Source: Chloroflexota bacterium
GTDB taxonomy: Bacteria; Chloroflexota; Dehalococcoidia; Dehalococcoidales; UBA2162
NCBI GenBank assembly: GCA_016199495.1
Contig: JACQGQ010000040.1
Span: forward strand, 9,773 to 73,772
Direction: 5' to 3'
DNA length: 64,000 bases
Shown one piece after another: positions 10,345-63,204 of the stretch. The notes beneath the pieces were generated by a model that saw nothing but the letters and a program-made list of their open reading frames with translations, was not told where the DNA came from and made no database searches. The position numbers were made by a program, and so were the translations under genes. The stretch's first letter is position 1; each line of letters starts with the position of its first letter.

Positions 10345-10401
10345 TGCCAACTGGCAAAATAAGATACATATATTGACAACTGTCCTTATTTAACTTATAA
10401 T
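10345..10401 (+). promoter_or_regulatory. Consensus sigma70 promoter with upstream palindrome (copy 1 of a shared glycan-operon motif)
   Basis: TGCCAACTGGCA (10345-10356), 16 nt, TTGACA (10373-10378), 17-nt spacer, TATAAT (10396-10401). The -35 is embedded in TTGACAACTGTCC, a near-palindrome (GACAACTGTC). It lies 50 nt upstream of the XRE ATG. Confidence 0.75.
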
Positions 10402-10451
10402 TTAGCTGACATAGCAGGTAAAGCTTCATTTAATACGGCTTTTGATGTATA

Positions 10452-10643
10452 ATGGAGAAGCTTAAGGAAAAGGTAAAGGCGCTACGAAAGAAGAGAGGCT
10501 GGTCGCAAGAGGACCTGGCACGGGAAATAGATGTTAGCCTCTCCACGGTTCAGCGCTGGGAGGGGAAGGGGGCTAATCCCACCCGTCTGGCTCGTCGGGA
10601 GCTTAAGAAACTTTTCCGAGCCGCTGGCATTGATGACGAGTAG
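10452..10643 (+). CDS. XRE-family helix-turn-helix transcriptional regulator (63 aa)
   Basis: 'LRKKRGWSQEDLAREIDVSLSTVQRWEGKGANP' is a textbook HTH_3/XRE motif. It is the first gene after the consensus promoter and immediately precedes the GT2 gene. Confidence 0.85.
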   Translation: MEKLKEKVKALRKKRGWSQEDLAREIDVSLSTVQRWEGKGANPTRLARRELKKLFRAAGIDDE

Positions 10644-10650
10644 GAAAATA

Positions 10651-11532
10651 ATGGCTAGACCGCCTCGACCGAAAATAATGGCTGCTATTCCCGCTTTTAA
10701 TGAGGAGAAGTACATCGGTACCATCGTACTTAAAACCAGGCAATATGTGGATGAGGTCGTTGTCGTTGACGATGGTAGTACGGACCAAACGGCCAGCATC
10801 GCCAGACTGGCCGGGGCTAACGTCATTCAGCACCAGCAAAACAGGGGTTATGGGGCTAGCATCCAGACCCTCTTAACCGATGCCAAGGGAAAAGAGCTTG
10901 ATATTCTTGTCCTTCTTGATGGTGACTTCCAGCACAATCCTGACGAAATTCCTCAACTCATCCAGCCCATCTCGGAAGGTTTTGACCTCGTTATTGGCTC
11001 AAGGGAAGCCCAGGGGGTCAATATCCCTGGATACCGCCGTATCGGGCAAAGGGCGATAGCCTATTTCTCCCGTATTCTCTCCGGGAAAAAGCTCTACGAT
11101 TCCGAGTCCGGATTCAGGGTTTTTTCCCGAAAGGCGATAGCCTTGCTCGAGTTGAAAGAAAATGGCATGGCTATCTCAGCCGAGACGATAGCCGAGGCGG
11201 CTGAAAAGGGGCTCAAAATTACCGAAAGGCCAATTTCAATCAGGTACACTGAGGACGGCTCAACCCTGCACCCCGTCGTGCATGGCTTTGGGGTTCTCGG
11301 TCGCATCATCGTCATGATTTCTGAAAGGAGACCCCTCTTTTTCTTCGGGCTGGGTGGTTTCATACTGAGCGTGCTTGGCTTGTTTGTCGGCATCAGGGTG
11401 CTGAGCATTGCTTCCGCTAGCGGGCAGGTAGCTATCGGCACGGCGCTGGTCTCAACCTTGTTGCTGATTATTGGCGTATTGAGTATTTTTACCGGCGTCA
11501 TACTAAACGTGCTCACCAAATGGAGAAGCTGA
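10651..11532 (+). CDS. GT2 polyprenyl-phosphate glycosyltransferase (GtrB/ArnC/DPM1-like) with two C-terminal TM helices
   Basis: ATG 10651 lies 5 nt after AGGA; the track ORF start at 10531 overlaps the XRE gene in another frame. 'IMAAIPAFNEEKYIG...VVVVDDGSTDQT' and 'LDGDFQHNPDEIP' are GT-A DXD-type motifs. The C-terminus 'LFFFGLGGFILSVLGLFVGI...ALVSTLLLIIGVLSIFTGVIL' gives two TM helices. Confidence 0.85.
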   Translation: MARPPRPKIMAAIPAFNEEKYIGTIVLKTRQYVDEVVVVDDGSTDQTASIARLAGANVIQHQQNRGYGASIQTLLTDAKGKELDILVLLDGDFQHNPDEIPQLIQPISEGFDLVIGSREAQGVNIPGYRRIGQRAIAYFSRILSGKKLYDSESGFRVFSRKAIALLELKENGMAISAETIAEAAEKGLKITERPISIRYTEDGSTLHPVVHGFGVLGRIIVMISERRPLFFFGLGGFILSVLGLFVGIRVLSIASASGQVAIGTALVSTLLLIIGVLSIFTGVILNVLTKWRS

Positions 11533-11737
11533 GAGGGTGTCAAAATGTCATTCTGAACGTAGCGAAGAATTTCGGGGAAGGGCAGACCCGCCTGCTAAAG
11601 CTTGGCGGGCAGGCAAACTAACAGGAAACTGGCTTTTGGTCATTCTGTCTCAAATTCTGGCTAACAGAATTAGAGTACCTTAACAGCCTCTATATGCCAT
11701 GTCGGTAACATTGATAATTTGAAGAGGAATCGAGGCA

Positions 11738-12814
11738 TTGAAGATTACGATAATCGTTGGCACTCGCCCCGAAATAATCAAAATGGCACCGGTCATCAGG
11801 GAATTAGAGAAACGGCCGGCTAACTACTTTATCCTCCATACTGGCCAGCACTATTCATACAACCTTGACCGGGTATTCTTTGAGCAGCTAAAACTCCCGC
11901 CGCCTAAATATAATCTGGAGGCAGGGTCGGGCTCACCTGGTGAGCAAACGGCAAAGATACTTGTCGCTATCGAAAAAGTCCTGCAACAGGAAAGCCCCGA
12001 TGTAATTCTGGTGGAGGGTGACACCAACTCTGTCCTCGCCAGTGCTCTAGCTGCGGTTAAGCTCCACATAAAAGTGGGGCATGTCGAGGCCGGCTTGAGA
12101 AGCTACGACAGGCAGATGCCGGAGGAGATTAATCGTATCTTGACCGACCATTGCTCCGACTTCCTGTTTGCCCCCACCAGGCAGGCAAAAGCCAACCTGC
12201 GGGGGGAGGGTATTCCTGAAGAGAAGATATTCATCACCGGCAATACGATTGTTGATGCCGTCCAGCAGAGCCTGGCAATAGCCAGAGGCAGTGCCAGTAC
12301 TATTAACACCCTGGGCCTCAAGACGGGGGAATATTTCTTGGTAACCGTTCACCGCCAGGAGAATGTCGATAACCGGGCAAGATTTGCCTCTATCTTGAAA
12401 GGTCTTGACAGGCTGGCGGCTAGCTTTGAAATGCCGGTAATCTATCCTGTCCACCCCCATTCCAGGAAGATGATGGCTAAGTTCGACCTTCACTGCCAAC
12501 GCCTCAGGCTGGTTGAACCAGTAGATTTCCTTGGCTTTTTGCAACTTGAGAGCAATGCCCGGCTTATCCTGACCGATTCCGGCGGTGTCCAGGAAGAGGC
12601 TTGTATCCTCGGTGTGCCCTGCGTTACCCTGAGAGATAACACTGAGAGACCGGAAACAATCGAGGTTGGCGCCAACGTCTTAGCCGGTGTTTCGCCGGAT
12701 AAGATACTTGAATGCGCCAAGGTGATGCTTGACCGGGAAAAGGGTTGGCCGAATCCCTTCGGCGACGGCAAAGCTGGAGGGAGAATTGTTGACATACTGG
12801 GGGGGAAGAGATGA
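11738..12814 (+). CDS. wecB: UDP-N-acetylglucosamine 2-epimerase (non-hydrolysing)
   Basis: 'MKITIIVGTRPEIIKMAPV', 'VEGDTNSVLA', 'HVEAGLRSYD...MPEEINR', 'SDSGGVQEEA' are the WecB/MnaA signatures. TTG start. Confidence 0.9.
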   Translation: MKITIIVGTRPEIIKMAPVIRELEKRPANYFILHTGQHYSYNLDRVFFEQLKLPPPKYNLEAGSGSPGEQTAKILVAIEKVLQQESPDVILVEGDTNSVLASALAAVKLHIKVGHVEAGLRSYDRQMPEEINRILTDHCSDFLFAPTRQAKANLRGEGIPEEKIFITGNTIVDAVQQSLAIARGSASTINTLGLKTGEYFLVTVHRQENVDNRARFASILKGLDRLAASFEMPVIYPVHPHSRKMMAKFDLHCQRLRLVEPVDFLGFLQLESNARLILTDSGGVQEEACILGVPCVTLRDNTERPETIEVGANVLAGVSPDKILECAKVMLDREKGWPNPFGDGKAGGRIVDILGGKR

Positions 12815-13725
12815 GAATACTGGTCACCGGCGGTCTGGGAGCGGTCGGCAAGCCCTTATCTGGGGAATTGAGGCGGAGGGGGCATGAGGTCTGGATTTCA
12901 GACAGGACGCACTCTTATGAGTCATATTACATAAGGTGCGATATCGGCGAGTTTCACCAGGTGGAGGCTCTTTTCCGTAAAGTGGAATTTGATTATGTCT
13001 ATCATCTCGCCGCCGAATTTGGTCGCCGTAATGGCGAAGATTTCTATGAGACGCTCTGGAAGACGAATGCTATTGGCACGAAGAATATCCTGAGAATGCA
13101 GGAACGGCTTCAATTCAAGATGATATTCACCAGCAGTTCGGAGGTCTACGGGGATTACGGCGGGATTATGAGTGAAGATGTCATGGATAAAGTGGCTATC
13201 CGGCAAATGAACGATTACGCTATGAGTAAGCGAGTGAACGAGATGCAAATTTTGAATTCCGCTGATAGATTCGGTACGGAGACAGTGCGCCTCCGGTTGT
13301 TCAACACTTACGGCCCCGGAGAGTATTATTCTGAGTATAGGAGCGCTATCTGTGTCTTTATCTATCGAGCTCTGCACGACTTACCCTACACCGTTTTCAC
13401 CAGGCACAGACGGACCTCCTCCTATATCGATGATACGGTCAGGACACTGGCTAATATCGTCGGAAATTTCAAGCCGGGCGAGGTCTATAACATCGCCGGT
13501 AACGAATTGCACGATATGAAGCAAGCCTCCGATATTATTCTCAGTTATCTGGGTAAGGATGATAGTTTGGTCGAGTATCGTGATGTCGAAGAAGCGACCA
13601 CCCTGGAGAAGAGGGTGGATGCTTCCAGGGCAGTTCGCGACCTGGGGCATCAAAGCACCGTGGCCCTGGAGGAGGGCATCCCGAGGACTATCGACTGGCA
13701 GAAAGGGGTTTACGGCCGTGGCTAA
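12811..13725 (+). CDS. NAD-dependent epimerase/dehydratase (extended SDR)
   Basis: 'MRILVTGGLGAVG' Rossmann motif, 'FTSSSEVYG', 'YAMSK' (YxxxK). The ATGA overlaps the wecB stop. Confidence 0.8.
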   Translation: MRILVTGGLGAVGKPLSGELRRRGHEVWISDRTHSYESYYIRCDIGEFHQVEALFRKVEFDYVYHLAAEFGRRNGEDFYETLWKTNAIGTKNILRMQERLQFKMIFTSSSEVYGDYGGIMSEDVMDKVAIRQMNDYAMSKRVNEMQILNSADRFGTETVRLRLFNTYGPGEYYSEYRSAICVFIYRALHDLPYTVFTRHRRTSSYIDDTVRTLANIVGNFKPGEVYNIAGNELHDMKQASDIILSYLGKDDSLVEYRDVEEATTLEKRVDASRAVRDLGHQSTVALEEGIPRTIDWQKGVYGRG

Positions 13726-14938
13726 GAAAATAGTCATAATTGGTACCGGTTATGTCGGCTTGCCTCTCGCTATCGTGCTGGCGCGCGCCGGCTATCAGGT
13801 TGTCGGTGTTGATATTGAGGAAAACGTAGTCAACGCCATTAACCAGGGTGTCTTACGTCTGGCTGAAGAAGAGGTCAAGCAGATATTCCGGGAACCCCGG
13901 GTAAGAGAGAACCTTCATGCCCAGAAGACCCCTTGCCCGGCAGATGTCTTTATCATCTCGGTGCCGACACCCCTGGACGAAAAGAAAAGGATTGCTGACC
14001 TTTCCCAGGTTATCGGCGGTGTGGAGTCTATTTTACCATTTTTGCGTTCGGGTAACCTGGTCATCCTGGAAAGCACCGTGCCTCCGCTCACCTGCCGGCA
14101 GATTGTCGCTCCCCTTATTGAAAAGACCGGGTTAAAAGTGGGGGAAAGCATTTTCCTCTGTCATTGTCCGGAAAGAATTTTACCCGGCGAAGTATTTGAG
14201 GAACTGGTGAACAATGACCGGGTTATTGGCGGGCTTAATGCTCAAGCCGCCCAGATGGCCAGGGAAATCTATGCCTCCTTTGTTAAGGGGAATCTTTATC
14301 TCACTGACGATGTTACCGCGGAACTGGTCAAGCTGATGGAAAATACCTATCGAGATGTCAATATCGCCCTGGCTAACGAATTTGCCGCCGTGGCTGAAGG
14401 GCTTAGAGTGGATATCTTGCAGGCGATTGAGCTGGCTAATAAGCATCCTCGGGTCAATATCCTTAAACCCGGCATCGGTACTGGCGGGCATTGTATTCCT
14501 GTCGACCCCTGGTTTATCAAGGAGGTTAATCCGATTAACTCTCGCCTCATCCATACTGCCCGGCTGATTAATGATGAGGTACCCTATAAAATTGCTGCCA
14601 GGATTAGGCAGACCCTCAAGGAGATAAAGAATCCTCGTATAGTAGCCGTCGGTGTTACCTACAAACCTGATACCTATGACATCAGGAATAGCCCGGCGCT
14701 GAAGATAGTTAGCCTGCTCAGGGAAGACGGCTACCAGGTGGCAGCCTATGACCCGTTGGCTCAGGGTTATCAATATACTTCTCTCGGGGAAGTAGCCAAA
14801 GGAGCCGATTGTTTAGTGATACTGGTGGAGCATCAGGTTGTTAAGCAAGAGCTTGCCGGTAAGGAGATTGATATCAAGAAGGTTATGCGCCACCCCTTGA
14901 TAATGAGATTCTACCCTCAACCAGAAGTGACCACCTAG
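13718..14938 (+). CDS. Nucleotide-sugar 6-dehydrogenase, UDP-N-acetyl-D-mannosamine dehydrogenase (WecC)-like
   Basis: GTG 13718 overlaps the upstream stop; the track start at 13559 lies inside the previous gene. 'KKIVIIGTGYVGLPLA', 'GGHCIPVDPWFI'. Proximity to wecB (one SDR gene between them) suggests UDP-ManNAcA formation. Confidence 0.8.
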   Translation: MAKKIVIIGTGYVGLPLAIVLARAGYQVVGVDIEENVVNAINQGVLRLAEEEVKQIFREPRVRENLHAQKTPCPADVFIISVPTPLDEKKRIADLSQVIGGVESILPFLRSGNLVILESTVPPLTCRQIVAPLIEKTGLKVGESIFLCHCPERILPGEVFEELVNNDRVIGGLNAQAAQMAREIYASFVKGNLYLTDDVTAELVKLMENTYRDVNIALANEFAAVAEGLRVDILQAIELANKHPRVNILKPGIGTGGHCIPVDPWFIKEVNPINSRLIHTARLINDEVPYKIAARIRQTLKEIKNPRIVAVGVTYKPDTYDIRNSPALKIVSLLREDGYQVAAYDPLAQGYQYTSLGEVAKGADCLVILVEHQVVKQELAGKEIDIKKVMRHPLIMRFYPQPEVTT

Positions 14939-14943
14939 GAACA

Positions 14944-16350
14944 ATGTTAAAAATAACTTTAATAAACCCCCCGCAAGCCAGCCAATATTCACAACCCCCG
15001 ATGGGGCTAGCCTTGCTCGCCGCTGTCCTGGAAAGGGGCGGCTACAATGTAGCTGTCGTCGATGCCAACGCCTTAAAGCTCAAGCCGGAGAATGTCGTCC
15101 CCCAGGTGATTGATACCGATGTCGTCGGACTGACCGCGATGACTCCCACGATAAATGCGGCGATAGCTATCGCTCACCATCTGAAAAAAGCTGACCCCGA
15201 TTTGACCTTAATCCTGGGCGGTGCCCACGCTACTCTGCTACCTGAGGAAACGTTAATTAGTGCCCCTGAAATAGACGTGGTTATCCGGGGAGAGGGGGAA
15301 GAGACCGTTATTGAATTACTGCGGGCTTTAGAAGATAAGCAGCCTTTAGGTAAAATTCCAGGCATTAGCTACCGAAAAGATGGTAAGGTGGTCAGTAATG
15401 CGGCTAGAGCCACGGAGGTTGATTTGGACTCTCTGCCTTTTCTTGGCTACCACTTACTGCCCTGGCAAAGATATAAACCCCATCCGCCCCACGGCCGCGC
15501 CCTCCCCTTTGCCGCTATTATCACCAGTCGGGGTTGTCCTTACCAGTGTGGCTACTGCTCCAAACCCATCTTTGGCAACAAGTTTAGAGGGCAAAGCCCG
15601 CAGAGGGTGGTTGCTGAGATTGCTTACTACCAGGATAAGTTTGCCATTAAAGAGTTTGCTTTCTACGATGATGTCTTTACCCTGAACCGGCAGAGAGCCT
15701 ATGGGATAGCCGAAGAGCTAATAAAAAGGGAGCTAAAAATAGTCTGGACCTGCGAGACGCGGGTCAACCTGGTGGATAAAGATTTATTGACCCGTATGAA
15801 GCAAGCCGGTTGCTATGCGGTTGCCTATGGTATCGAATCTGCTTCCCCGGAGATACTGGCCAGTCTCAACAAAGGCATAACTATCGACAAGGTGGAGGAG
15901 GCAATTCGCCTATCCCGGGAGGTAGGCTTACAAACCATTGGTTACTTTATGATTGGCTGTCCCGGCGAGAACCAGGAAACCATCGTTGCCACCATTGAAT
16001 TTGCCAAGAAGCTAAAGGTTGATTTCGCCCAGTTTGCTGTCACCACACCATTCCCGGGTACCGGGTTATACGACTTATATCTAAAGGATAAGGGAGACAA
16101 CATCCCCTGGGAAAACTTTGTCTACGGAGGGGCGGGCAACCAGATAAACCCCGTGTTTGAAAGCGCTCAACTTAGCCGGGCTGACCTTGAGTATTGGAAG
16201 GGAAGAGCTTATCGAGAATTCTACCTGCGTCCGGCTTACATCTGGCAGCGCCTTAAACAGGTTGACTCTATCGGGGACTTAAGACTTAATCTCAAGGGGT
16301 TTTTGATGCTTCTGGGGGATATCAAACCTCGGCCAAGAGAAGGAGCATGA
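14944..16350 (+). CDS. B12-binding-domain radical SAM protein (COG1032-type, class B rSAM) no. 1
   Basis: N-terminal Rossmann-like cobalamin-domain pattern ('LINPP...PMGLALLAAVLERGGYNVAVVD...VVGLTAMT...ILGGAHAT...IRGEGE'), then 'SRGCPYQCGYCSKP' (CxxxCxxC). Confidence 0.85.
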   Translation: MLKITLINPPQASQYSQPPMGLALLAAVLERGGYNVAVVDANALKLKPENVVPQVIDTDVVGLTAMTPTINAAIAIAHHLKKADPDLTLILGGAHATLLPEETLISAPEIDVVIRGEGEETVIELLRALEDKQPLGKIPGISYRKDGKVVSNAARATEVDLDSLPFLGYHLLPWQRYKPHPPHGRALPFAAIITSRGCPYQCGYCSKPIFGNKFRGQSPQRVVAEIAYYQDKFAIKEFAFYDDVFTLNRQRAYGIAEELIKRELKIVWTCETRVNLVDKDLLTRMKQAGCYAVAYGIESASPEILASLNKGITIDKVEEAIRLSREVGLQTIGYFMIGCPGENQETIVATIEFAKKLKVDFAQFAVTTPFPGTGLYDLYLKDKGDNIPWENFVYGGAGNQINPVFESAQLSRADLEYWKGRAYREFYLRPAYIWQRLKQVDSIGDLRLNLKGFLMLLGDIKPRPREGA

Positions 16351-17567
16351 ACATCCTTTTTGTCCACGAAGTTGATTGGCTGAGAAAGGTAGTGTTTGAA
16401 ATACACACCCTTTCCGAACTTTTGTCCCTGTCAGGACACCAGGTTTATGCCATTGACTATGAATCTATGTGGGTTAAGAACCAGCCCTTTGACTTTGGCA
16501 GCCTCAAAACGCAGACAGTTGATAGGGTAGCCAGGGCTTACCCCGATGCCTCGGTGAGCCTGATACGTCCCGGCTTTATCAAGCTTCCCGGCTTGAGCCG
16601 TCTCTCGGCGACCTACACCCACTGCCGGGAAATCCAGAAAACTATTAAGGGAAAAGATATTGATGTTATTATCCTTTACTCCGTGCCGACCAATGGCTGG
16701 CAAACCATCCGTCTCAGTCGGAAGCTGGGCGTGCCGCTAGTGTTCAGAGCCATCGATATACCCAATCAACTCGTCCCCTATCCGCTCTTGCGCCCGATGG
16801 TTCGCTGCCTGGAAAGAAAAGTATACTCCAACGTAGACCTGATTCTAACCATTAGCCCGCGGCTGTCCCAATACGTGATTAATATGGGCGCCCCGCCGGC
16901 TAAGGTGGAACTGCTGCTCCTGGGGGTAGATACCGGCTTCTTCCGTCCGCAGCCTGATGATACTGAAATCCGCCGGAAATGGGGGTTGGGGGAAAAGGAC
17001 CTGATTATCGTTTTCATCGGCACCCTGTTTGGTTTCAGCGGGCTTGATGCCTTTATCCGCCGTTTCTCTGAAATCGTAAGAGAGATTCCCGAAGCCAGGC
17101 TGCTCATCGTCGGTGATGGACCTCAGCGCCCCGGGCTGGAAAGAATAATCACGGAATTGGGTCTGCAAAGGCAGGTCATCATCACCGGCTTCCAACCCTA
17201 TGAGACGATGCCCGGCTACATCAATCTGGCGGCAGTATGTATAAATATCTTCCGGCTGACAGCTACTACCCGGGATATCTTCCCGACCAAGATAGTCCAG
17301 TATCTGGCTTGCGGCAAGGCGGTGGTTGCCACGCCGCTGCCCGGCATGACGGCCATAATTCACGGCCGAGAGCAGGGGATAGTTTATGCCACTACCCCTG
17401 GCGAGATAGCTTCCGAGATAATCGCACTGCTTCAATCACCCCAGGACAGGCAACAATTAGGGCAAGCCGCTTTAAGCTACGTGAAGCAAGCGCACAGTTA
17501 TGATAGAATAGCTCAACAGCTTGAAGCCGCCCTTGGTGAAGTCGCTGGTAGAGGGGAATCAGCGTGA
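16347..17567 (+). CDS. GT4-family glycosyltransferase no. 1
   Basis: 406 aa with GT-B retaining-type C-terminal motifs ('IIVFIGTLFGFSGLD...LLIVGDGP...FPTKIVQYLACGKAVVAT'). The ATGA overlaps rSAM-1. Confidence 0.85.
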   Translation: MNILFVHEVDWLRKVVFEIHTLSELLSLSGHQVYAIDYESMWVKNQPFDFGSLKTQTVDRVARAYPDASVSLIRPGFIKLPGLSRLSATYTHCREIQKTIKGKDIDVIILYSVPTNGWQTIRLSRKLGVPLVFRAIDIPNQLVPYPLLRPMVRCLERKVYSNVDLILTISPRLSQYVINMGAPPAKVELLLLGVDTGFFRPQPDDTEIRRKWGLGEKDLIIVFIGTLFGFSGLDAFIRRFSEIVREIPEARLLIVGDGPQRPGLERIITELGLQRQVIITGFQPYETMPGYINLAAVCINIFRLTATTRDIFPTKIVQYLACGKAVVATPLPGMTAIIHGREQGIVYATTPGEIASEIIALLQSPQDRQQLGQAALSYVKQAHSYDRIAQQLEAALGEVAGRGESA

Positions 17568-19012: not shown

Positions 19013-19014
19013 AC

Positions 19015-21143: not shown

Positions 21144-21202
21144 AAAGCGTGAAAGGAATATGAGCTAGGCTGGGCAGTCAGCCAAAGATGAGGGGGAGAG
21201 AT

Positions 21203-23702: not shown

Positions 23703-23710
23703 AGATTGAT

Positions 23711-48776: not shown

Positions 48777-48782
48777 GAAGTC

Positions 48783-49904: not shown

Positions 49905-50242
49905 AGATTACAAAAAACGAACCACCGCGAATCTTCCGTGCCGGTGAAGACAGTCAAATCAGGATTTCTGACTGTGGGAGGATATACCTTGAGCCCGATG
50001 AGCAGGTCAGTTTTATAACTTCTTCAGGTAAGGAGCATGATTTTACTGCTAAGTCATGGGGATTCTACGCTACTCCATCCGTAAACAAACGGCTGGTCGA
50101 CCAGGGTTTCAAAACGGCTCTGGTGAAGAACGAGGCCGGTAGATACTACATTATGGTTGTGGACGTTGGCCGTATCTCCGATTTTGAAGCGTATCTGAGT
50201 TCGGAAAAGAACCAGGTGGTAGAGTGGATAGATGAACGCTAA
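49901..50242 (+). CDS. Hypothetical protein (113 aa)
   Basis: The ATGA overlaps the amidotransferase stop. I recognise no motif. Confidence 0.5.
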   Translation: MKITKNEPPRIFRAGEDSQIRISDCGRIYLEPDEQVSFITSSGKEHDFTAKSWGFYATPSVNKRLVDQGFKTALVKNEAGRYYIMVVDVGRISDFEAYLSSEKNQVVEWIDER

Positions 50243-56731: not shown

Positions 56732-57766
56732 TCAAGTCAGCACCGATAAAGATTCCCAGATTGACTTATACCAGTTGATGTATTCGACAAAACCTCTCTC
56801 CAGAGGGAATTGCGGATTGTAGCCAATCATTTCCCTTGCCCTGTCGACGCAGAGGGTGCCGCGGTCGGGGGTTAGCCTGTCCTTGGGCAGGTAGTTAATT
56901 TCGACACCGGGGAAATGCTCGGCCAGGATGTCTGCCATCTGAGCAACAGAGCGGGATTCGCCATAGGTCATATTGAATAGCTGGTTTTTGGAATTCTTAT
57001 TCTCCAGGATGTTAACAATGCCTGATACCAAATCATCAATGTAGGTAAAGTCCAGACGACTGGAACCGTCGCCCTGAATTGAAATCTCCAGACCCTGCAG
57101 GGCACTTTCGATGAAGACCTGTCCCACACGCCGACTGACACAGCGCGGCCCATACAATGCCGACGGACGGAGAATAGTGTAGGGCAGGTCGAAGACCTGG
57201 TTATAGGCAATAACCATCTTCTCTCCGGCGAATTTGAGAGCGCCATAAATACCCAGAGGCTCACAAGGTGTTTCTTCAGTTACGGAACCTGAGGTAAAGT
57301 TGCCATACACCATGCTGGAAGAAAAATAAATAAAGTGCTTGATGTGCAGGCTTGGAGACCTGGCAATATCCAGGGAGTTCTCTAGCGTCCTTAAGCTATG
57401 GTCAAAGGTGCTGTAAGGGTCTTTATTTGACCTGTCGGCATGGGCGACGGCCGCCAGGTGAATCAAGGTATCAACATCCATCCCCCCGATAGCTTCCGAA
57501 AGCCTGACATAATCTCTGGAGTCGAGCTCGGTAAGAGGAATACTTTTCTCTTTCAAGAGGTCAAGCCGTTGCTGAATAATGCTCAGGTAAAGCTCACTAT
57601 TGGGGATGGCATCGGCATTGTTTTTGATGCTATAGAGGTTGTTGACAGCCAGGCTATCGATAATAAATACCTCGGCACCTAAGTCTTTGAGTTTCAGCGC
57701 CAGATTGTGTCCGATAAAACCGGCACCACCGACTAGAACAATGCGTCGACCTGTAAAATCACTCAT
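56732..57766 (-). CDS. NAD-dependent epimerase/dehydratase (extended SDR)
   Basis: 'IVLVGGAGFIGHNL', 'FSSSMVYG', 'YGALKFAGEK'. Confidence 0.8.
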   Translation of the reverse strand: MSDFTGRRIVLVGGAGFIGHNLALKLKDLGAEVFIIDSLAVNNLYSIKNNADAIPNSELYLSIIQQRLDLLKEKSIPLTELDSRDYVRLSEAIGGMDVDTLIHLAAVAHADRSNKDPYSTFDHSLRTLENSLDIARSPSLHIKHFIYFSSSMVYGNFTSGSVTEETPCEPLGIYGALKFAGEKMVIAYNQVFDLPYTILRPSALYGPRCVSRRVGQVFIESALQGLEISIQGDGSSRLDFTYIDDLVSGIVNILENKNSKNQLFNMTYGESRSVAQMADILAEHFPGVEINYLPKDRLTPDRGTLCVDRAREMIGYNPQFPLERGFVEYINWYKSIWESLSVLT

Positions 57767-57767
57767 C

Positions 57768-58916
57768 TTACTTGACCTCCATAATGGCGTTCTTGATTGT
57801 TGTTACCATATAGTTAATGTCTTCGTGACTAACATGTGGCCCCACGGGTAGGGCAATCGAGTTGCCACTAATGCGAGACGCCACCGGGAAACTAGTATCG
57901 CTGTAGCCGTACTTGTCTTTATAATACCTGAGGTGGGGGACAGGGCGCGGATAATAGACGCTGGTGCCAAGTCCGTGTTGTTTGAGATAATTCACTATTT
58001 CGAAGCGTTTCTTGAATAGGGGCTCCTTGAGAATTATCGTCTGGCAGTAGTAACTGCTCTGATAGCCGTCATGGCTGGACTGCAACAACTCAATTTCACC
58101 AATATCCGCCAACCCTGTTGTCAGCGACGTATAGTTTTCCTGGCGTTTTTGCAGGAAACTATCAATCTTCTTCATTTGCTCGATACCCAGGGCAGCCCCG
58201 AGCTCATTCAATCGATAATTCAGCCCCAACTCCACGACATCATATATGCCCGGAATATCACGCTCACTGACAATATTGCGGTCGATACCAAAGGCTCTCT
58301 GGCGGGAGATTTTTTCGACAGTCTCCCGGGATTTAGCCAACACCATCCCTCCCTCGGCGGTAGTAATATGCTTTACCGGGTAGAAGGAAAAACAGCCGAC
58401 ATCGCCGAAAAGACCAGCATGCATTCCGTCCAGATAGGTACCAATGGCCAGAGCACAGTCCTCCACCACAAACAGATTGTGCTTCTTGGCAATCTCCATG
58501 ACACGGTGCATATTAACCGGCATACCTAGGTAATGCACAATGGCAATTACTCTTGTCCGTTCGGTTAGTTGAGCTTCGATTTGGTCGATATCGATATTGC
58601 CGGTGTCCTTTTCCGCATCAACAAATACCGGCCTGGCACCTACCAGCTCGGCGGCATGGGCCGTGGCGACGTGTGTCTCGGCAGGAACAATTACCTCATC
58701 GCCAGGACCTAAACCGAGACAGTGATAGGCTAAGTGCAGCGCCGCCGTACAGGATGATACGGCGATAGCATCTTTCGCTCCGGTGTAGTGAGCAAAAAGG
58801 GCTTCGAATTCTTTTACCCGTGGACCATGGGTCAAAATTGGTCCGCTGAGCACCTGCGCCACGGCATTTCTCTCTTCATCACCGATAATAGGGCTACCAA
58901 AAGGTATTGTTCGCAT
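57768..58916 (-). CDS. DegT/DnrJ/EryC1/StrS-family sugar aminotransferase no. 3 (WbpE/PseC/SpsC-like)
   Basis: 'GDEVIVPAETHVATAHA', 'IVHYLGMP', 'FSFYPVKHITTAEGGMVL'. Confidence 0.85.
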   Translation of the reverse strand: MRTIPFGSPIIGDEERNAVAQVLSGPILTHGPRVKEFEALFAHYTGAKDAIAVSSCTAALHLAYHCLGLGPGDEVIVPAETHVATAHAAELVGARPVFVDAEKDTGNIDIDQIEAQLTERTRVIAIVHYLGMPVNMHRVMEIAKKHNLFVVEDCALAIGTYLDGMHAGLFGDVGCFSFYPVKHITTAEGGMVLAKSRETVEKISRQRAFGIDRNIVSERDIPGIYDVVELGLNYRLNELGAALGIEQMKKIDSFLQKRQENYTSLTTGLADIGEIELLQSSHDGYQSSYYCQTIILKEPLFKKRFEIVNYLKQHGLGTSVYYPRPVPHLRYYKDKYGYSDTSFPVASRISGNSIALPVGPHVSHEDINYMVTTIKNAIMEVK

Positions 58917-58928: not shown

Positions 58929-59933
58929 CTAGATGTAGGTCACCATTACTGAATCCGATTGATGAGTCGCCTTTTCAATAGCAAAACACACTGACATTGT
59001 CTGGAAGATGTCCTCTACAGTCACTTCTGCCGGAGAACGGCCCAGGATAGATTCGACAAAACTATAAATCAGCTCACCCTTTTCGATACCGGGGTAAGGG
59101 GTGGTAATTTTTTTACCTGTTTGAGCCGGATCACGCGATTCAAATAGCGTGGCGTGCTCCAGACCATTGACAAAGGTTGCCCGCGTGCCGTAAATACTCA
59201 GGGCGTGAAAATGGGGATATACACACCCGAAATTAGCCGCCACCTTGCCAATCAGACCACTCTTAAACTTTAAAATACTAACCACCATGTCATTATAACG
59301 AAAGCCTTTACCCCGGGAAGCAATAGCATTGCCGTAAGCGGCTACTTCGACGATACGGTCACCGGTCAGCCAGAGGAGCAGGTCCACAAGATGTACCGCC
59401 CCTCCGTAGACCACGGAGTAGAAATCGATTTTGCCCCGCCACCCCTCCGTTATCTTGTGCAGCCGGCCGTAATTATAGTCCCCTTCCACATAAAACAACT
59501 GGCCCAGCTTACCATCTGTAATCATCCGCTTTAGCTGGAGAAAACGGGGAGAGAGGCGTAGAATCAGATTAGAAGACATTTTCAAGGCGGGTTTCTGCTG
59601 AAGTAGCTGACGTATATGAGCAGCTTCATTCTCATACAAGCAGAGAGGCTTTTCAACGAAAATATGCTTGTCGTTTTCGATGGCTTGTACAATCTGCTGG
59701 TAGTGATAATTATCGTAGCTGGCGATGGAGACTATATCAATGTCCGGGTCGTGAAGCAGCTCATCAGCCTTAGAGGTTAGCCTGATGCCTGGATATTGCC
59801 TTTTAGCCATCGCCAGTTTGTCATCGGAGAAATCACACAGGGCGACGACCTCACAATCAGGGTGACTTTGATATCCGGCAATATGTCCTTCACCCACACC
59901 CAGGCCGATGATACCTACCCTTAGACTTTTCAT
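58929..59933 (-). CDS. Gfo/Idh/MocA-family oxidoreductase (WbpB-like)
   Basis: 'LRVGIIGLGVGEGH', 'IFVEKPL'. 334 aa. Confidence 0.8.
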   Translation of the reverse strand: MKSLRVGIIGLGVGEGHIAGYQSHPDCEVVALCDFSDDKLAMAKRQYPGIRLTSKADELLHDPDIDIVSIASYDNYHYQQIVQAIENDKHIFVEKPLCLYENEAAHIRQLLQQKPALKMSSNLILRLSPRFLQLKRMITDGKLGQLFYVEGDYNYGRLHKITEGWRGKIDFYSVVYGGAVHLVDLLLWLTGDRIVEVAAYGNAIASRGKGFRYNDMVVSILKFKSGLIGKVAANFGCVYPHFHALSIYGTRATFVNGLEHATLFESRDPAQTGKKITTPYPGIEKGELIYSFVESILGRSPAEVTVEDIFQTMSVCFAIEKATHQSDSVMVTYI

Positions 59934-60640
59934 AATCGTTCTATTCTCGATAGTGCCAGGCTACGATAAATCTGAAGAATATCTTCCAGCGTATACTCCC
60001 AGTGGGGTCGTATCATTTTAGATACTATTGTAACAAAATTGTCCATATCTTGCCAAGTGTCCACAGATAACTGAATATGGCTAAGATTTTCGGTCAGGGC
60101 AAAGTTTTGTATGCGGAATTCCTCTGGATGATTATAATAATATCTGGTCAGATGCTCTAGGTCATCCTCTGCTCGCATACGGTCGCAGGCCTTCCGGTAA
60201 GTAAAAACCCGCAAGATTTCAGTTGACTGTCCTTTAGGATAGCTACGTGGGAAAATGTTGGTTACCAGGTCATAATCTCCATTCAGGAAAATGTCTATAC
60301 CCTTTTCAATTATTCGCTGGTCGAGCAGTGGACTGTCTCCGTTCACCCTGACAAAGACGTCAAACTGGTATAGATTCAAGACTTCCTTGAATCTGCCGGC
60401 GACATTGGATAAAGGACCGCGGTAACAGGCGACACTATTCTGGCGGCAATAATCAGCTATGGGCGTGTCGCTATCATCAATTGAGGTAGCGACTACTATA
60501 TTATCGAGGTAGTCACAATGCTCAAGCCGCTCTAATGAGTATTGCAGTAGGGGCTTACCGTCGGCTTCAAGCAGTACCTTGTTCGGTAACCGCTGGGAGC
60601 TCATACGAGCCTGGACTATAGCGCCTATCTTCATTTTCAT
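59930..60640 (-). CDS. Cytidylyltransferase-family protein (SpsF / acylneuraminate cytidylyltransferase-like)
   Basis: 'IGAIVQARMSSQRLPNKVL...GKPLL', 'VRVNGDSPLLD'. Confidence 0.75.
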   Translation of the reverse strand: MKMKIGAIVQARMSSQRLPNKVLLEADGKPLLQYSLERLEHCDYLDNIVVATSIDDSDTPIADYCRQNSVACYRGPLSNVAGRFKEVLNLYQFDVFVRVNGDSPLLDQRIIEKGIDIFLNGDYDLVTNIFPRSYPKGQSTEILRVFTYRKACDRMRAEDDLEHLTRYYYNHPEEFRIQNFALTENLSHIQLSVDTWQDMDNFVTIVSKMIRPHWEYTLEDILQIYRSLALSRIERL

Positions 60641-60670
60641 TCAATTCAATGTCCGCCTACTGTCCAATTC

Positions 60671-61918
60671 TCATAAACTCCGGTAGACAAGCCCCTTCTC
60701 CCTGGCTTCTGCATTTGAGAAAACTCCCCGAACATCAATTAAAATGGGGCTATCATTCATCATGCCTTTTAGTTTAGCCACGGTCATTTTCGTAAAGGCT
60801 TTATGAGCCACGGCGATAATCACACCATCAACTTTAGTCTCTTTGAGGTTCGATACAACCTTAATTCTAAATTTGCCTTCAATATCATCCAGCAATGGGT
60901 CATACCCCCATACCTCAACGCCGTATTCTTGAAGCTCGGCGATGATTTCTTTTACCGGGGTTTCCCTGGTATCGGCGACGTTTTCTTTATAGGTTAAGCC
61001 CATGATAAGGACTCGGGAGCCTTTTATTACCTTACCGACAGAGTTTAAGGCTTTGATGGTCATCTCGGTGAGGTGATGCGCCATGCTATCATTGATGGCT
61101 CTACCGGCGAGGATGACCTGAGGATGGTAACCTACCTCTCTGGATTTATAGACCAGGTAATAGGGGTCAACTGGTATGCAGTGTCCACCGACCAGGCCGG
61201 GAGAGTAGCGCTGGAAATTCCATTTAGTCGCGGCTGTATCCAGGACGTCTCTAGTATTTAAGCCCATTTTTTCGAAGATGATGGCAAATTCGTTCATGAG
61301 GGCTATATTCAAGTCCCTTTGGATATTTTCGATGACCTTGGCCGCTTCGGCAGTCTTTATATTCTTAGCCTTGAAAATATGAGGGGTTATCTTACCGTAG
61401 AGTTCAGCCAGCAGCTCGGTAGTCTCCTCATTCATGCCGGCAATCACCTTGGTTACCTTGTCTAGGGAATGCTCCTTATCACCGGGGTTTATCCTCTCCG
61501 GGGAATAGGCAATCTTAAAGTCCAGGCCACACCTGAATCCGGACTCATTTTCTAAAATCGGCTTGACAATCTCTTCGGTGACACCGGGATACACTGTCGA
61601 TTCCAGGATGACGACACTGCCTTTCTTCATATTTTGCCCGACAATTCTAGCCGTATCTTCGACGTGGGATAAATCAGGTTCTTTGGATTTGGTCACCGGG
61701 GTCGGCACGCAGATAATAATGAAGTCAGCTTTGCCGATTTCCTCAGCTTTATCAGTGAAGAGGAGGTTCTGACTGTTATTGTTTTTGTTTAATTCTGTCA
61801 GTTTCCTTTTGTCATTATCGTAGCCGATTACCTTAAGGCTTCTGGAGAATGCCTGAGCCAGCGGTAGCCCGACGTAACCCAGCCCAATAATACACACGGT
61901 CGTTTTCTTTAAATCCAT
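60671..61918 (-). CDS. Nucleotide-sugar 6-dehydrogenase (UDP-GlcNAc/GalNAc dehydrogenase, TviB/WbpA/WbpO-like)
   Basis: 'TVCIIGLGYVGLPLAQAF', 'GGHCIPVDPYYL', 'VLIMGLTYKENVADTR'. Confidence 0.85.
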   Translation of the reverse strand: MDLKKTTVCIIGLGYVGLPLAQAFSRSLKVIGYDNDKRKLTELNKNNNSQNLLFTDKAEEIGKADFIIICVPTPVTKSKEPDLSHVEDTARIVGQNMKKGSVVILESTVYPGVTEEIVKPILENESGFRCGLDFKIAYSPERINPGDKEHSLDKVTKVIAGMNEETTELLAELYGKITPHIFKAKNIKTAEAAKVIENIQRDLNIALMNEFAIIFEKMGLNTRDVLDTAATKWNFQRYSPGLVGGHCIPVDPYYLVYKSREVGYHPQVILAGRAINDSMAHHLTEMTIKALNSVGKVIKGSRVLIMGLTYKENVADTRETPVKEIIAELQEYGVEVWGYDPLLDDIEGKFRIKVVSNLKETKVDGVIIAVAHKAFTKMTVAKLKGMMNDSPILIDVRGVFSNAEAREKGLVYRSL

Positions 61919-61919
61919 T

Positions 61920-62858
61920 TTATACGCCCTTAAACCACTTTATCGTTTCGGCCAATCCGGTTTCTAAATCATACAGCGGCTTATAGCCAAAGGCTTCAGC
62001 CTTTGAAATATCAGCCGAACTGTGTTTTATATCGCCGGGTCTTGCTCTCTGATACACGGGCTCCACATTACTCCCGGTAAGCTCAATAATATATTCTGCC
62101 AGCCGGTTAATGGTGATGCTGTCTCCCCGACTGATATTGAATACTCCACTGGCATTACTCTCTTCTGCCAGTAGATTTGCCGATACCACGTCCTTGACGA
62201 AGGTAAAATCTCTGGTTTGCTCTCCGTCGCCAAAGATGGTGGGAGAGTTACCCTCAAAACAGCTTTTAATAAATCTGGGAATGACAGCGGCGTATTGAGA
62301 ATCAGGGTCCTGTCCCGGTCCGAAGACATTAAAGTACCTGAGACAAACGGTAGCTAGTCCATAAACCTTGTGAAATACTCGGCAGTAGTATTCTCCGGCC
62401 AGTTTGGCTACCGCGTAAGGAGACTGTGGGTCAGGTAGCATGTTCTCTTTTTTCGGCAGGACTGGAGTATCTCCATAGACCGAGGATGACGAAGAATATA
62501 TCACCTTATTTACTCTATTGTCCCTGGCCGCCAGCAGTACCTTCAGCGTACCGCTAGCGTTGACTTGATGGCAAGGAAGGGGTTCATCGATACTGCGAGG
62601 AACGCTGGGGATAGCGGCCAGGTGAAAGACACAACTAACGTCCCGAAAAAGCTTCTGAAGCAACGAAAGATTGGTGACGCTGCCCCGAATAAAATCAATG
62701 TCATTTTCCGAAATCAGTCCTTCAATATTCCTCAGCTTACCCGTGGAGAGGTCATCCAGAACCTTTACATTGTAGCCCCTCCTCACAAGGCTGCCGGTAA
62801 GATGAGAGCCGATGAACCCGGCGCCACCCGTAACGACTACCTTTTTATCTTGTTTCAT
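61920..62858 (-). CDS. UDP-sugar 4-epimerase (TviC/WbpP-like extended SDR)
   Basis: The ATG at 62858 (MKQDKKVVVTGGAGFIGSHL) is preferred over the track TTG at 62894. 'DDLSTGKLRNIE', 'YSSSSSVYG', 'YAVAKLAGEYY'. Confidence 0.85.
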   Translation of the reverse strand: MKQDKKVVVTGGAGFIGSHLTGSLVRRGYNVKVLDDLSTGKLRNIEGLISENDIDFIRGSVTNLSLLQKLFRDVSCVFHLAAIPSVPRSIDEPLPCHQVNASGTLKVLLAARDNRVNKVIYSSSSSVYGDTPVLPKKENMLPDPQSPYAVAKLAGEYYCRVFHKVYGLATVCLRYFNVFGPGQDPDSQYAAVIPRFIKSCFEGNSPTIFGDGEQTRDFTFVKDVVSANLLAEESNASGVFNISRGDSITINRLAEYIIELTGSNVEPVYQRARPGDIKHSSADISKAEAFGYKPLYDLETGLAETIKWFKGV

Positions 62859-63146
62859 AACAAACCCATCGTGAGTAGCCGAGTCCCAGGGCAAAGGCTA
62901 TTCTGTTAGGAATACAGGTGACGAAGCGAGTACTGAGATATGGAAGGATAGTCAATATCAATATCATGAATAGAACTCCATCAACTACCCACATCCGAAC
63001 GATTTCAAGATACCTCTCACCTGGCTGAGGAGCGATTCACTCACAATATCTCAACAATTATAGCACGGCGAAAATCAATATACTAGCTAGTGTACTGGTT
63101 CATAAAAAGCACAGTAAGTGGAAGTCCAACTTGCATAGTACTTAAA

Positions 63147-63204
63147 ATTATGTATCAACATAAGGACAATTGTCAATAGTTGTATTACAAAATGCCAGAT
63201 GGCA
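63147..63204 (-). promoter_or_regulatory. Copy 3 of the shared glycan-operon promoter/operator motif
   Basis: The minus strand reads TGCCATCTGGCA (63204-63193), 16 nt, TTGACAATTGTCC (-35 = 63176-63171), 18-nt spacer, CATAAT (63152-63147). A further TGCTATAAT extended -10 lies at 63065-63057. Confidence 0.6.

Follow-up and report, generated by a model that had tools for sequence, protein, structure and literature searches.

A modular surface-glycan locus in a Chloroflexota bacterium combines a polyprenyl-phosphate glycosyltransferase with a DUF2206 membrane protein of predicted GT-C fold

Several described systems assemble cell-surface glycans with components that resemble those of the locus reported here. 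In the three-component systems ArnC/ArnT(+ArnEF), GtrB/GtrC(+GtrA), CsbB/YfhO(+GtcA), and Ppm1/Pmt, a family 2 glycosyltransferase (GT2) with C-terminal transmembrane (TM) helices works together with a GT-C-fold transferase; the pgl system of Campylobacter jejuni (PglC, PglK, PglB) combines a phosphoglycosyltransferase (PGT) with a fused ABC half-transporter as flippase and a GT-C final transferase; and the synthesis of mycobacterial phosphatidylinositol mannosides, lipomannan, and lipoarabinomannan (PIM/LM/LAM; PimA/PimB, Ppm1, PimE/MptA/EmbC/AftA) joins cytoplasmic GT4 enzymes to a polyprenyl-phosphate-sugar synthase and GT-C enzymes, with no PGT required. In the Agl system of Haloferax volcanii (AglJ/G/I/E and AglB; AglD/AglR/AglS; PMC3871713, PMC3892788), AglJ primes dolichol phosphate (Dol-P), and soluble glycosyltransferases then lengthen the glycan (PMC3871713). 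Here, we analysed a window of 64,000 nucleotides from an uncultured Chloroflexota bacterium (Dehalococcoidia; Dehalococcoidales; UBA2162; GenBank assembly GCA_016199495.1, contig JACQGQ010000040.1, positions 9,773 to 73,772 of the forward strand), in which a glycan island extends as a near-continuous run of genes from 10531 to 62894. We regard the island as a lipid-linked surface-glycan locus in which an uncharacterised and mostly archaeal family of predicted GT-C fold, DUF2206, takes the place of the known terminal enzymes.

We tentatively read the island as a modular, hypervariable surface-glycan locus that works on a polyprenyl-monophosphate carrier without any PGT. The GT2, which is always the first gene of its glycosyltransferase operon, would attach the first sugar to polyprenyl phosphate on the cytoplasmic side of the membrane, and GT4, GT-A-like, and GT-B-like enzymes would lengthen the lipid-linked glycan with rare, methylated sugars. 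The ABC exporter would then flip the lipid-linked glycan, as Wzx would do in sister loci, and DUF2206 would move it, whole or in part, onto the final acceptor outside the membrane. Most probably this acceptor would be a protein of the S-layer or cell surface, or else some other part of the envelope of a cell in which peptidoglycan is scarce or lacking, and protein or S-layer glycosylation is a plausible target. The Agl system offers a counterpart to each step, namely a Dpm1-type GT2 that charges polyprenyl monophosphate, soluble glycosyltransferases that extend the chain, and flipping before transfer by a multi-spanning transferase outside the membrane; moreover, it shares with the island an AglM-like dehydrogenase for uronic acids, glycan methylation, and clustered, strain-variable genes. 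In contrast to Agl, the island lacks an AglB/STT3 homologue, its flippase candidate is an ABC exporter rather than AglR/Wzx, its host is bacterial, and it holds far more sugar-modifying enzymes, including three B12-binding radical S-adenosylmethionine (SAM) enzymes and two thiamine diphosphate (ThDP) enzymes.

The GT2 at the head of operon A (10531..11532, plus strand; genes are named below by the lower coordinate of their open reading frame, ORF) belongs to the Dpm1/ArnC/GtrB/AglJ type. It matches Pfam Glycos_transf_2 at 4e-26 and ends in two TM helices (residues 270-288 and 310-328). Among the NCBIfam models AglJ scores best (1.9e-41), followed by PpgS, a haloarchaeal Dol-P-hexose transferase, and ArnC, although none of the four reaches its cutoff, and the nearest PDB structures are the Pyrococcus Dol-P-Man synthase 5mlz (7.5e-15) and ArnC 9bhc (1.7e-14), at residues 45-321, the ArnC alignment covering nearly the whole length. 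These matches identify 10531 as a predicted polyprenyl-monophosphate glycosyltransferase, and its C-terminal TM helices and polyprenyl-phosphate type are those of the GT2 component of three-component systems. Close relatives (56-87% identity) were found at 80 metagenome loci, most of them on contigs shorter than 5 kb, where WecB (20), radical SAM proteins (15), and short-chain dehydrogenases/reductases (SDRs; 13) are neighbours. The GT2 heads a conserved operon in these relatives, in the order GT2-WecB-SDR-(dehydrogenase)-B12-radical SAM-GT4, and in locus L102 a compact six-gene operon reads GT2-WecB-SDR-GT4-SDR-DUF2206. Besides, the GT2 is found no more than 8 kb from DUF2206 in four archaeal loci (L011, L017, L019, L020) and in a Saccharimonadales bacterium (L022). 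Since it also heads a glycosyltransferase operon, accompanied by a heptose module, in L106, where DUF2206 is absent, the GT2 is tied to the soluble glycosyltransferases rather than only to a GT-C enzyme. L048 encodes further large membrane proteins downstream of the GT2 (7309-10207), one with 13 TM helices and one DUF1616-like.

We favour priming in the haloarchaeal manner because the GT2 keeps its place as first gene of the glycosyltransferase operon even without DUF2206, because PGT genes are consistently missing across the relatives, and because the GT2 matches AglJ best, in a locus with archaeal affinities; AglJ is the known precedent for Dol-P priming with later extension by soluble enzymes (PMC3871713).

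The island encodes up to seven soluble glycosyltransferases. Two GT4 enzymes are recognised by Pfam in operon A, at 16347..17567 (plus strand; Glycos_transf_1 and Glyco_trans_4_4) and 19015..20181 (plus strand), and a divergent GT4-like (GT-B) enzyme is found at 25664..26944 (plus strand; Glyco_trans_4_4, 4.8e-8). The last of these is the best-conserved partner of DUF2206 and stands immediately upstream of it; homologues with 54-59% identity adjoin DUF2206 in L001, L004, L006, L007, and L010 (Methanomicrobiales), and the homologue in L025 gives a weak Glyco_trans_1_4 match as well. Two further soluble proteins, one of 299 residues at 29271..30170 (minus strand; it closes operon B and converges on DUF2206) and one of 357 residues at 42002..43075 (minus strand), have no Pfam match. 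The former lacks TM segments and belongs to a family of 3930 homologues, mostly from Chloroflexota, with one member called 'glycosyltransferase family A' and one that matches PF00535; it is syntenic in L001, L002, L009, L106, and L107. The family of 42002 comprises 2777 cluster representatives, PF00535 is matched by 2 of 27 homologues at 6.5e-5, and a fragment in its 90%-identity cluster carries the name 'GT2 family'. As profile-profile alignments to GT2 with hhalign gave weak signals (2% probability for 29271; E 1.3e-3 and 18% probability for 42002), we call both proteins GT-A candidates only, 42002 being GT2-like. The N-terminal ~175-250 residues of 42002 are often found repeated, two to six times, in metagenome proteins of 1000-2800 residues, a pattern typical of multidomain polymerising glycosyltransferases.

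The 370-residue protein at 50441..51553 (minus strand), the last gene of operon E, belongs to an orphan family with 65 homologues only, none of them annotated. Its AlphaFold (AF2) model has a GT-B fold (pLDDT 90.2), and the Foldseek matches include plant and bacterial UDP-glycosyltransferases (8e-6), the bacterial polysialyltransferase 5wc6 (1.1e-5), UDP-sugar 2-epimerases, and the sialyltransferases 4v2u and 2yk7. On this model, 50441 is a candidate for a nonulosonic-acid transferase or for the missing PseG/NeuC-like hydrolase. PDB sequence and profile searches with 29271, 42002, 50441, and 25664 gave no usable match.

Directly downstream of 25664, operon A ends with the DUF2206 membrane protein (27006..29240, plus strand; 744 residues, about 16 TM helices), the candidate extracytoplasmic glycosyltransferase. 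It passes Pfam DUF2206 (PF09971) with 110.3 bits against a gathering threshold of 35.6, and its hydropathy profile has 16 hydrophobic segments. An AF2 model built on 26 homologues (pLDDT 79.6, pTM 0.85) was compared with the PDB by Foldseek, and the top 12 matches were all GT-C proteins, among them STT3 of the eukaryotic oligosaccharyltransferase, AftA (8if8), ArnT, and the C-mannosyltransferase DPY19, with probabilities of 0.98-1.00, E values of 8e-3 to 0.12, and modest TM-scores of 0.29-0.47. Below these, the matches were noise, save for a weak Pmt1-Pmt2 match (GT-C) at rank 26 with a probability of 0.69. Two short helices (33-45 and 47-55) follow TM1 in the model, as in GT-C first loops, and R36, K139, and R212 are invariant among 26 sequences of the family, with E138, H215, and D220 near-invariant. 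A GT-C fold is thus a reasonable prediction from the model. We also considered DUF2206 as a Wzy polymerase or WaaL ligase and rejected both, there being no such structure among its structural matches. A literature search on DUF2206 found no paper.

DUF2206 has at least 537 homologues, the closest of which (up to 61% identity) are on metagenome contigs. In a genome collection searched with a 10-sequence alignment, the nearest named genomes are metagenome-assembled genomes (MAGs) of Dehalococcoidia (52-57%), and the remaining genome matches are mostly archaeal (31-45%), from ANME-1/Methanophagales, Methanosarcinales, Methanomicrobiales, Altiarchaeia, and Methanobacterium. A PMT_2 GT-C protein and an LPG_synthase_TM protein are encoded directly upstream of DUF2206 in L024 (7505-10001). 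In L001 (9302-9913) and L025 (9333-9944), this position is taken by a PIG-L-family deacetylase, accompanied by either Acetyltransf_9 or WbqC.

The PIG-L genes bear on the possibility of a lipid-anchored lipoglycan, made in the manner of mycobacterial PIM/LM/LAM or of glycosylphosphatidylinositol, in which the GT4 enzymes would glycosylate a membrane lipid inside the cell, the ABC exporter would flip the product, and DUF2206 would extend it with the polyprenyl-phosphate sugar made by the GT2, so that no PGT would be needed. The set of GT4 enzymes, Ppm1-like GT2, and GT-C protein fits the logic of PimA/PimB, Ppm1, and PimE/Mpt, no gene is more tightly associated with DUF2206 than the divergent GT4 25664, PGT genes are absent throughout, and wall-less or S-layer-only cells often bear lipoglycans. 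Nevertheless, the window contains neither PIG-L nor any lipid-head-group gene, and one polyprenyl-phosphate-sugar synthase would be insufficient for the many sugars encoded, most of the glycan still being built in the cytoplasm. The island also differs from the mycobacterial loci in lacking lipid-anchor genes, in having a single GT-C protein and a single polyprenyl-phosphate-sugar synthase, and in its quite different sugars. We regard a lipoglycan as distinctly unlikely and return to the polyprenyl-monophosphate scheme.

The membrane components of the island are few. A hydropathy scan of the called genes and of six-frame stop-to-stop ORFs of at least 50 residues yielded three island membrane proteins only, namely the GT2 10531, the DUF2206 protein 27006, and the ABC exporter 44770, and in none of the six frames was a small multi-TM ORF of the 4-TM GtrA/GtcA/ArnEF flippase type found. 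Every ORF of the window was scanned with Pfam, the informative ones with NCBIfam also, and for unassigned proteins matches were inspected up to E 10. No window ORF matched the Wzx (PF01943/PF13440/PF14667), Wzy, Wzz, OPX, ABC-2, or PGT families, the priming PGT families PF02397 and PF00953 included, a result that covers the window and neither the other ~16 kb of its contig nor the rest of the genome, where a PGT or an oligosaccharyltransferase may be encoded. Neither a separate ABC-2 permease nor its nucleotide-binding partner (Wzm/Wzt, KpsMT) was found, the sole ABC protein being a fused half-transporter; no STT3 match that would indicate an STT3/PglB/AglB oligosaccharyltransferase occurs within the window; and the Wzx of sister locus L025 had no phmmer match among the six-frame window ORFs. 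An earlier note, made from the letters of this DNA alone, had claimed that the genes of the classical routes (Wzx/Wzy, Wzm/Wzt, OPX, PGT) are missing and that a GtrB-like polyprenyl-phosphate glycosyltransferase, a fused ABC exporter, and a GT-C-like protein are the only export and extracytoplasmic components. The Pfam and six-frame scans bear out the absences, and the three components were rightly identified: the first is a relative of dolichol-phosphate-mannose synthases and ArnC, the second a fused ABCB/MsbA-type exporter, and the third a protein of predicted GT-C fold. The note had also conceded that a Wzx, Wzy, or PGT might hide among four proteins it could not assign. However, 29271, 42002, and 50441 have no TM segment and no PGT, Wzx, or Wzy profile match, and the fourth, 27006, resembles STT3, AftA, and ArnT, with no Wzy or WaaL structure among its matches. 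Assignment of the three soluble proteins as Wzx, Wzy, WecA, WbaP, or PglC was accordingly rejected. Nor does the island fit a locus for teichuronic acid or a secondary cell-wall polymer, a possibility rejected because no TagO, TagA, TagGH, or LCP matches were found.

The ABC exporter (44770..46554, minus strand) is a fused protein with a transmembrane and a nucleotide-binding domain (Pfam ABC_membrane and ABC_tran) of the ABCB/MsbA/HepA type. Its NCBIfam matches, all below cutoff, are HepA-family (416 bits), MsbA (383 bits), and PglK (265 bits against a cutoff of 1000); the fused architecture is that of PglK, with a model score lower than those of HepA and MsbA. The best half-transporters in the PDB are Sav1866 (281 bits) and MsbA (277 bits). 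We take 44770 as a candidate flippase for the lipid-linked glycan. In this respect the island is like the C. jejuni pgl system, with a fused ABC half-transporter as candidate flippase, a predicted GT-C final transferase, and no Wzy/Wzz, whereas it is unlike pgl in having no PglC-type PGT, no PglB/STT3 Pfam match, and no periplasmic domain bearing the WWDYG motif. In sister loci L025, L107, L011, L019, and L020, Wzx is present in place of the ABC exporter. As Wzx is found in L025 and L107 and DUF2206 is missing in L106, the ABC exporter and DUF2206 appear to be interchangeable or optional modules and not parts of a fixed new machine.

Such looseness raises the question of whether the island is one locus at all. 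Two or three independent loci could lie side by side, for instance one for nonulosonic-acid or filament glycosylation, one for a heptose polysaccharide, and the DUF2206 locus, with the ABC exporter an unrelated lipid or drug exporter. The best PDB relatives of the exporter are generic ABCB exporters, it is not conserved with DUF2206 or GT2 in related loci, and operons B and E hold candidate glycosyltransferases only. Against this, operon A alone has far fewer sugar pathways than glycosyltransferases, and the operon B and E modules travel with the GT2/DUF2206 operon: in L001, L002, and L106, the 29271-like, 50441-like, UDP-glucose dehydrogenase, FkbM methyltransferase, NeuB, and heptose modules converge on it. 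Mere juxtaposition therefore seems to us very unlikely.

Several observations speak against the polyprenyl-monophosphate scheme and the roles it gives to its three membrane proteins. The GT2 scores 142 bits against the AglJ model for the Dol-P primer, far from the equivalog cutoff of 325, a shortfall that also sets it apart from the Agl system. To our knowledge, the bacterial enzymes characterised so far in this clade (ArnC, GtrB, CsbB, Ppm1) all make monosaccharide donors for GT-C enzymes, and none primes oligosaccharides. For DUF2206, the resemblance to STT3 is at fold level only (E 8e-3, TM-score 0.39), with no STT3 Pfam match; D31, which occupies the acidic position expected in GT-C enzymes where the first extracytoplasmic loop begins, is aspartate in 18 of the 26 sequences, asparagine in 7, and glutamate in 1; and the C-terminal soluble part comprises only ~110 residues. 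The protein is absent from sister loci L106 and L107 and may thus be accessory. The ABC exporter, finally, is not a conserved neighbour in any of about 100 related loci, so it is its position that suggests a flippase role.

The main alternative is a conventional undecaprenyl-pyrophosphate pathway, in which a PGT encoded elsewhere primes, the soluble glycosyltransferases build the glycan, the ABC exporter or a distant Wzx flips it, and a ligase or polymerase elsewhere completes it, with GT2 and DUF2206 adding one side-branch sugar outside the membrane in the manner of ArnC/ArnT, GtrB/GtrC, or CsbB/YfhO. The architecture of the GT2, its ArnC and dolichol-phosphate-mannose synthase relatives, the characterised bacterial members of its clade, and the predicted GT-C fold of DUF2206 all fit a decoration pair; the two genes occur together in the window, L102, L011, L017, L019, L020, and L022; and DUF2206 is dispensable in L106 and L107, as would suit a decorating enzyme. 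In bacteria the priming gene is often a distant one, and conventional loci may also lack a PGT gene, as in Escherichia coli, where O-antigen loci use a distant wecA. The island shares with the three-component systems a C-terminal-TM GT2 and a GT-C-fold transferase in one operon. It departs from them, however, in that no GtrA/ArnEF/GtcA-type small flippase is encoded in any frame, in that the pair sits among three GT4 enzymes and many sugar pathways, and in that DUF2206 is a distinct, uncharacterised family. Moreover, the Pfam listings of six related loci of ~20 kb (L001, L002, L024, L025, L106, L107) contain no PGT family, and no ligase or polymerase was seen in them either; the GT2 heads its glycosyltransferase operon in L106 even without DUF2206; and the pathway requires at least three unseen components. 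We consider it a serious alternative, yet a somewhat doubtful one, and continue to prefer priming by the GT2 itself.

The related loci also show how the island is put together. L001 and L002 share the plan of the window, in which GT4 enzymes and DUF2206 are followed by the convergent 29271-like gene, UDP-glucose dehydrogenase, FkbM methyltransferases, the 50441-like gene, and NeuB; a 25664-like GT4 stands upstream of DUF2206 in L001. The plans differ in that B12-radical SAM enzymes are found in L001 only, and a split transketolase and a DegT aminotransferase in L002. The earlier note had called the assembly logic unusual: the components and absences are real, but the same modular architecture recurs in many metagenome contigs of Chloroflexota and Dehalococcoidia. 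Its further claim of a biosynthetic complexity far larger than that of known decoration or O-antigen systems was overstated, as the Campylobacter flagellin glycosylation island also has ~50 genes.

Archaeal counterparts are close for some genes. WecB 11738, the GT4 25664, and the TviB-like 60671 are 54-69% identical to DUF2206-adjacent genes in archaeal loci L010, L011, L014, and L017, in MAGs of Methanomicrobiales, Altiarchaeia, ANME-1, and others, which points to sharing or transfer of glycan modules between the domains. The archaellum is a precedent for archaeal surface machinery transferred to Chloroflexota (bioRxiv 10.1101/2025.02.02.636118), and Dehalococcoides has no peptidoglycan and an archaeal-like S-layer wall (PMC10608941). 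A glycosylation module would thus join the surface machinery common to archaea and Chloroflexota. A bolder proposal is that DUF2206 is a new oligosaccharide-transferring GT-C family which, with the AglJ-like GT2, forms a PGT-independent polyprenyl-monophosphate pathway, shared horizontally by methanogenic and ANME archaea and Dehalococcoidia and glycosylating S-layer or surface proteins without STT3/AglB/PglB; we judge this proposal, taken as a whole, unlikely. If the GT2 truly primes the carrier, a haloarchaeal-style, PGT-free route would be at work in a bacterium. In Haloferax, the transferase of AglB-independent N-glycosylation was reported as unidentified in 2013 (PMC3892788), and an account of 2023 describes a glycan that is added AglB-independently without naming the transferase (PMC10384203). 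Should this bolder proposal for DUF2206 be true, the family would be a candidate for such AglB-independent N-glycosylation in Euryarchaeota, the archaeal DUF2206 seen here being from methanogens, ANME, and Altiarchaeia. Dehalococcoidia-type Chloroflexota are abundant subsurface bacteria with a poorly understood envelope, for which the locus and the recurrent GT2-WecB-rSAM-GT4(-DUF2206) core provide a concrete, testable candidate surface-glycan pathway. The island is a good lead to an unstudied route of cell-surface glycan assembly, and DUF2206, a widespread family, is now given a predicted fold and a genomic context.

The window contains 110 ORFs of at least 90 residues. According to the ORF list and the Pfam and NCBIfam scans, the island comprises 49 ORFs and one gene fragment, 45 of which have a clear family assignment in glycan biosynthesis, a density far above chance expectation. 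It consists of operon A (10531-29240, plus strand, 16 genes), operon B (44501-29271, minus strand, 17 genes and one fragment), a divergent centre with the ABC exporter on the minus strand (44770-46554) and AsnB, WbuX, and a 117-residue ORF on the plus strand (46956-50242), and operon E (62894-50441, minus strand, 12 genes); most gene junctions are 4-base overlaps or gaps below 50 bp. This agrees with the three operons and central divergent pair described in the earlier note, except that no ORF starts at 10452, where the note had placed the beginning of the island; the first start codon after the stop is at 10531. Its inventory also held for the most part, with three B12-radical SAM enzymes (14944, 17564, 43068), three DegT aminotransferases (23711, 36596, 57768), two GNAT acetyltransferases, two split ThDP enzymes (21955+22776; 39434+38916), two amidotransferases (46956 and 48783), and five recognisable glycosyltransferases (the GT2 10531, the GT4 enzymes 16347, 19015, and divergent 25664, and the GT-C-like 27006). 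Five intact methyltransferases were found as listed, while the two dead ones are a single interrupted gene in two pieces (30180-30835); three of four nucleotide-sugar dehydrogenases are of the UDPG_MGDP_dh type, the fourth being a GFO/IDH/MocA oxidoreductase; and in place of nine SDR epimerases/dehydratases we count eight, in addition to an RmlC-type cupin epimerase and the 2-epimerase WecB.

These genes form five or six nucleotide-sugar modules, for UDP-ManNAcA, UDP-GalNAcA with amidation/acetamidino enzymes, UDP-GlcA, a 6-deoxy/amino-heptose, a CMP-nonulosonic acid, and a branched amino-dideoxyhexose. The presence of three B12-radical SAM enzymes and two split ThDP enzymes suggests that some of the sugars are C-methylated or branched. 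Operon A contributes, all on the plus strand, the non-hydrolysing UDP-GlcNAc 2-epimerase WecB (11738..12814; TIGR00236, 425 versus 210 bits), an SDR epimerase/dehydratase (12811..13725; Pfam Epimerase, 7.6e-39), and a UDP-ManNAc dehydrogenase-like protein (13559..14938) that scores above cutoff against the nucleotide-sugar dehydrogenase model (383 bits) and 372 and 343 bits against UDP-ManNAc dehydrogenase models. As the longest ORF of the last overlaps the SDR by 167 bases (13559-13725) and the family profile does not align until residue 56, translation probably begins near 13722. Two B12-binding radical SAM enzymes follow at 14944..16350 (Pfam B12-binding and Radical_SAM; nearest to HpnJ and BchE, below cutoff) and, according to Pfam and NCBIfam, at 17564..19012. 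Further downstream lie a nucleotide-sugar 4,6-dehydratase-like SDR (20178..21143; GDP_Man_Dehyd, 1.4e-77; LegB 246 and RmlB 233 bits, below cutoff), a TylF-type O-methyltransferase (21188..21958; Pfam), a split transketolase-like ThDP enzyme (21955-22779, Transketolase_N; 22776-23702, Transket_pyr and Transketolase_C), a DegT/PseC-like sugar aminotransferase (23711..24817; Pfam/NCBIfam), and a class I SAM methyltransferase (24840..25667; Pfam). The module of SDR, both transketolase parts, and DegT is kept in L002 with 67-77% identity.

Operon B, on the minus strand, carries a set that we take to be a route to a 6-deoxy/amino-heptose, like that for Campylobacter capsules. The heptose module consists of the phosphatase GmhB (33142-33747; 190 bits versus a cutoff of 178), the isomerase GmhA (33740-34312; 217 bits, cutoff 276), and an HddA-like GHMP kinase (34332-35333; 150 bits with the HddA model, below cutoff); no heptose-1-phosphate nucleotidyltransferase (HddC/HldC; NTP_transferase) was recognised anywhere in the island. 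Together with a nucleotide-sugar 4,6-dehydratase (41011..42087; GDP_Man_Dehyd, 1.9e-74), an RmlC-type 3,5-epimerase (35330..35887; TIGR01221, 159.3 bits versus a cutoff of 155.75), and three Fcl-like SDRs assigned by Pfam and NCBIfam (32105..33091, similar to GDP-fucose synthase reductases/epimerases; 37876..38883; 40021..40986), these genes are like those for the 6-deoxyheptoses of the C. jejuni capsule. The operon begins with a B12-binding radical SAM enzyme (43068..44501; Pfam/NCBIfam) and further includes a split ThDP enzyme resembling the alpha and beta parts of pyruvate dehydrogenase E1 (39434-40018 and 38916-39437; Pfam/NCBIfam), a DegT aminotransferase (36596..37810; Pfam/NCBIfam), a GNAT N-acetyltransferase (35927..36586; Pfam), and a UDP-glucose 6-dehydrogenase-like protein of the AglM/TuaD type (30765..32108; Pfam/NCBIfam). 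Next to the latter, the interrupted class I methyltransferase (30180..30835) has a degenerate SAM-binding motif I (GFLGTGS) closely preceded by two in-frame stops, and its C-terminal half alone, which matches Methyltransf_11, forms an ORF; the gene is probably a pseudogene or the result of an assembly error.

At the plus-strand side of the centre, an AsnB-type glutamine amidotransferase (46956..48776; TIGR01536, 375 versus a cutoff of 267 bits) is followed by the N-acetyl-sugar amidotransferase WbuX (48783..49904; TIGR03573, 342 versus 203 bits) and by the 117-residue ORF without family match (49889..50242), whose first 16 bases lie within the end of wbuX. By analogy, AsnB and WbuX may amidate uronic acids and form acetamidino groups. 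WbuX is usually paired with HisH/HisF-like partners, which are absent from the island.

Operon E, also on the minus strand, starts with a TviC-like SDR 4-epimerase (61920..62894; Pfam/NCBIfam) and a TviB-like UDP-GlcNAc 6-dehydrogenase (60671..61918; 378 bits, cutoff 592, while a subfamily model passes), the pair for UDP-GalNAcA. A nonulosonic acid set is present, with all equivalog scores below cutoff: a NeuB-type synthase (55219..55965; Pfam NeuB 1.3e-56; 207 bits with the NeuB model), a CMP-sugar cytidylyltransferase of the CTP_transf_3 family (59930..60640; Pfam/NCBIfam), a DegT/PseC-like aminotransferase (57768..58916; 322 bits with the PseC model, cutoff 423), and a GNAT N-acetyltransferase (55975..56703; Pfam). 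NeuB is short (248 residues) and has no C-terminal SAF domain, which the homologues in L002 and L107 keep. No PseG/LegG/NeuC hydrolase or hydrolysing 2-epimerase was recognised, the sole Epimerase_2 protein of the island being WecB of operon A. The remaining genes encode an SDR dehydratase/epimerase (56732..57766; Pfam/NCBIfam), the GFO/IDH/MocA oxidoreductase (58929..59933; Pfam/NCBIfam), two FkbM-family methyltransferases (51572-52462 and 52486-53589; Pfam), and a 514-residue protein (53626..55170) with an unassigned N-terminal part of 320 residues and a weak class I methyltransferase domain. With NeuB, CMP-transferase, DegT, and GNAT for nonulosonic acids and a comparable gene number, the island is like the flagellin glycosylation island of C. 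jejuni; in contrast to the C. jejuni capsule and flagellin loci, it contains no KpsMT/KpsED export genes and no Maf-type transferases.

Hints of a genomic island are limited to composition and one edge gene. The GC content is 0.48 in the island and 0.533 in the upstream flank, five points higher, and an IstB/DnaC-like AAA ATPase at the edge (63351-63920, minus strand), which may run beyond 64000, would be an IS21 helper or else a helicase loader. A search of the window found no tRNA as an island marker, and no transposase was seen within it. In the upstream flank, 6050-7264 and 4412-6037 (minus strand) form a single molybdopterin formate-dehydrogenase-like gene joined via an in-frame TGA at 6047-6049, which the motif HCARL-U-HSPT marks as a selenocysteine codon, and NuoE- and NuoF/GltD-like genes adjoin it (7305-10143).

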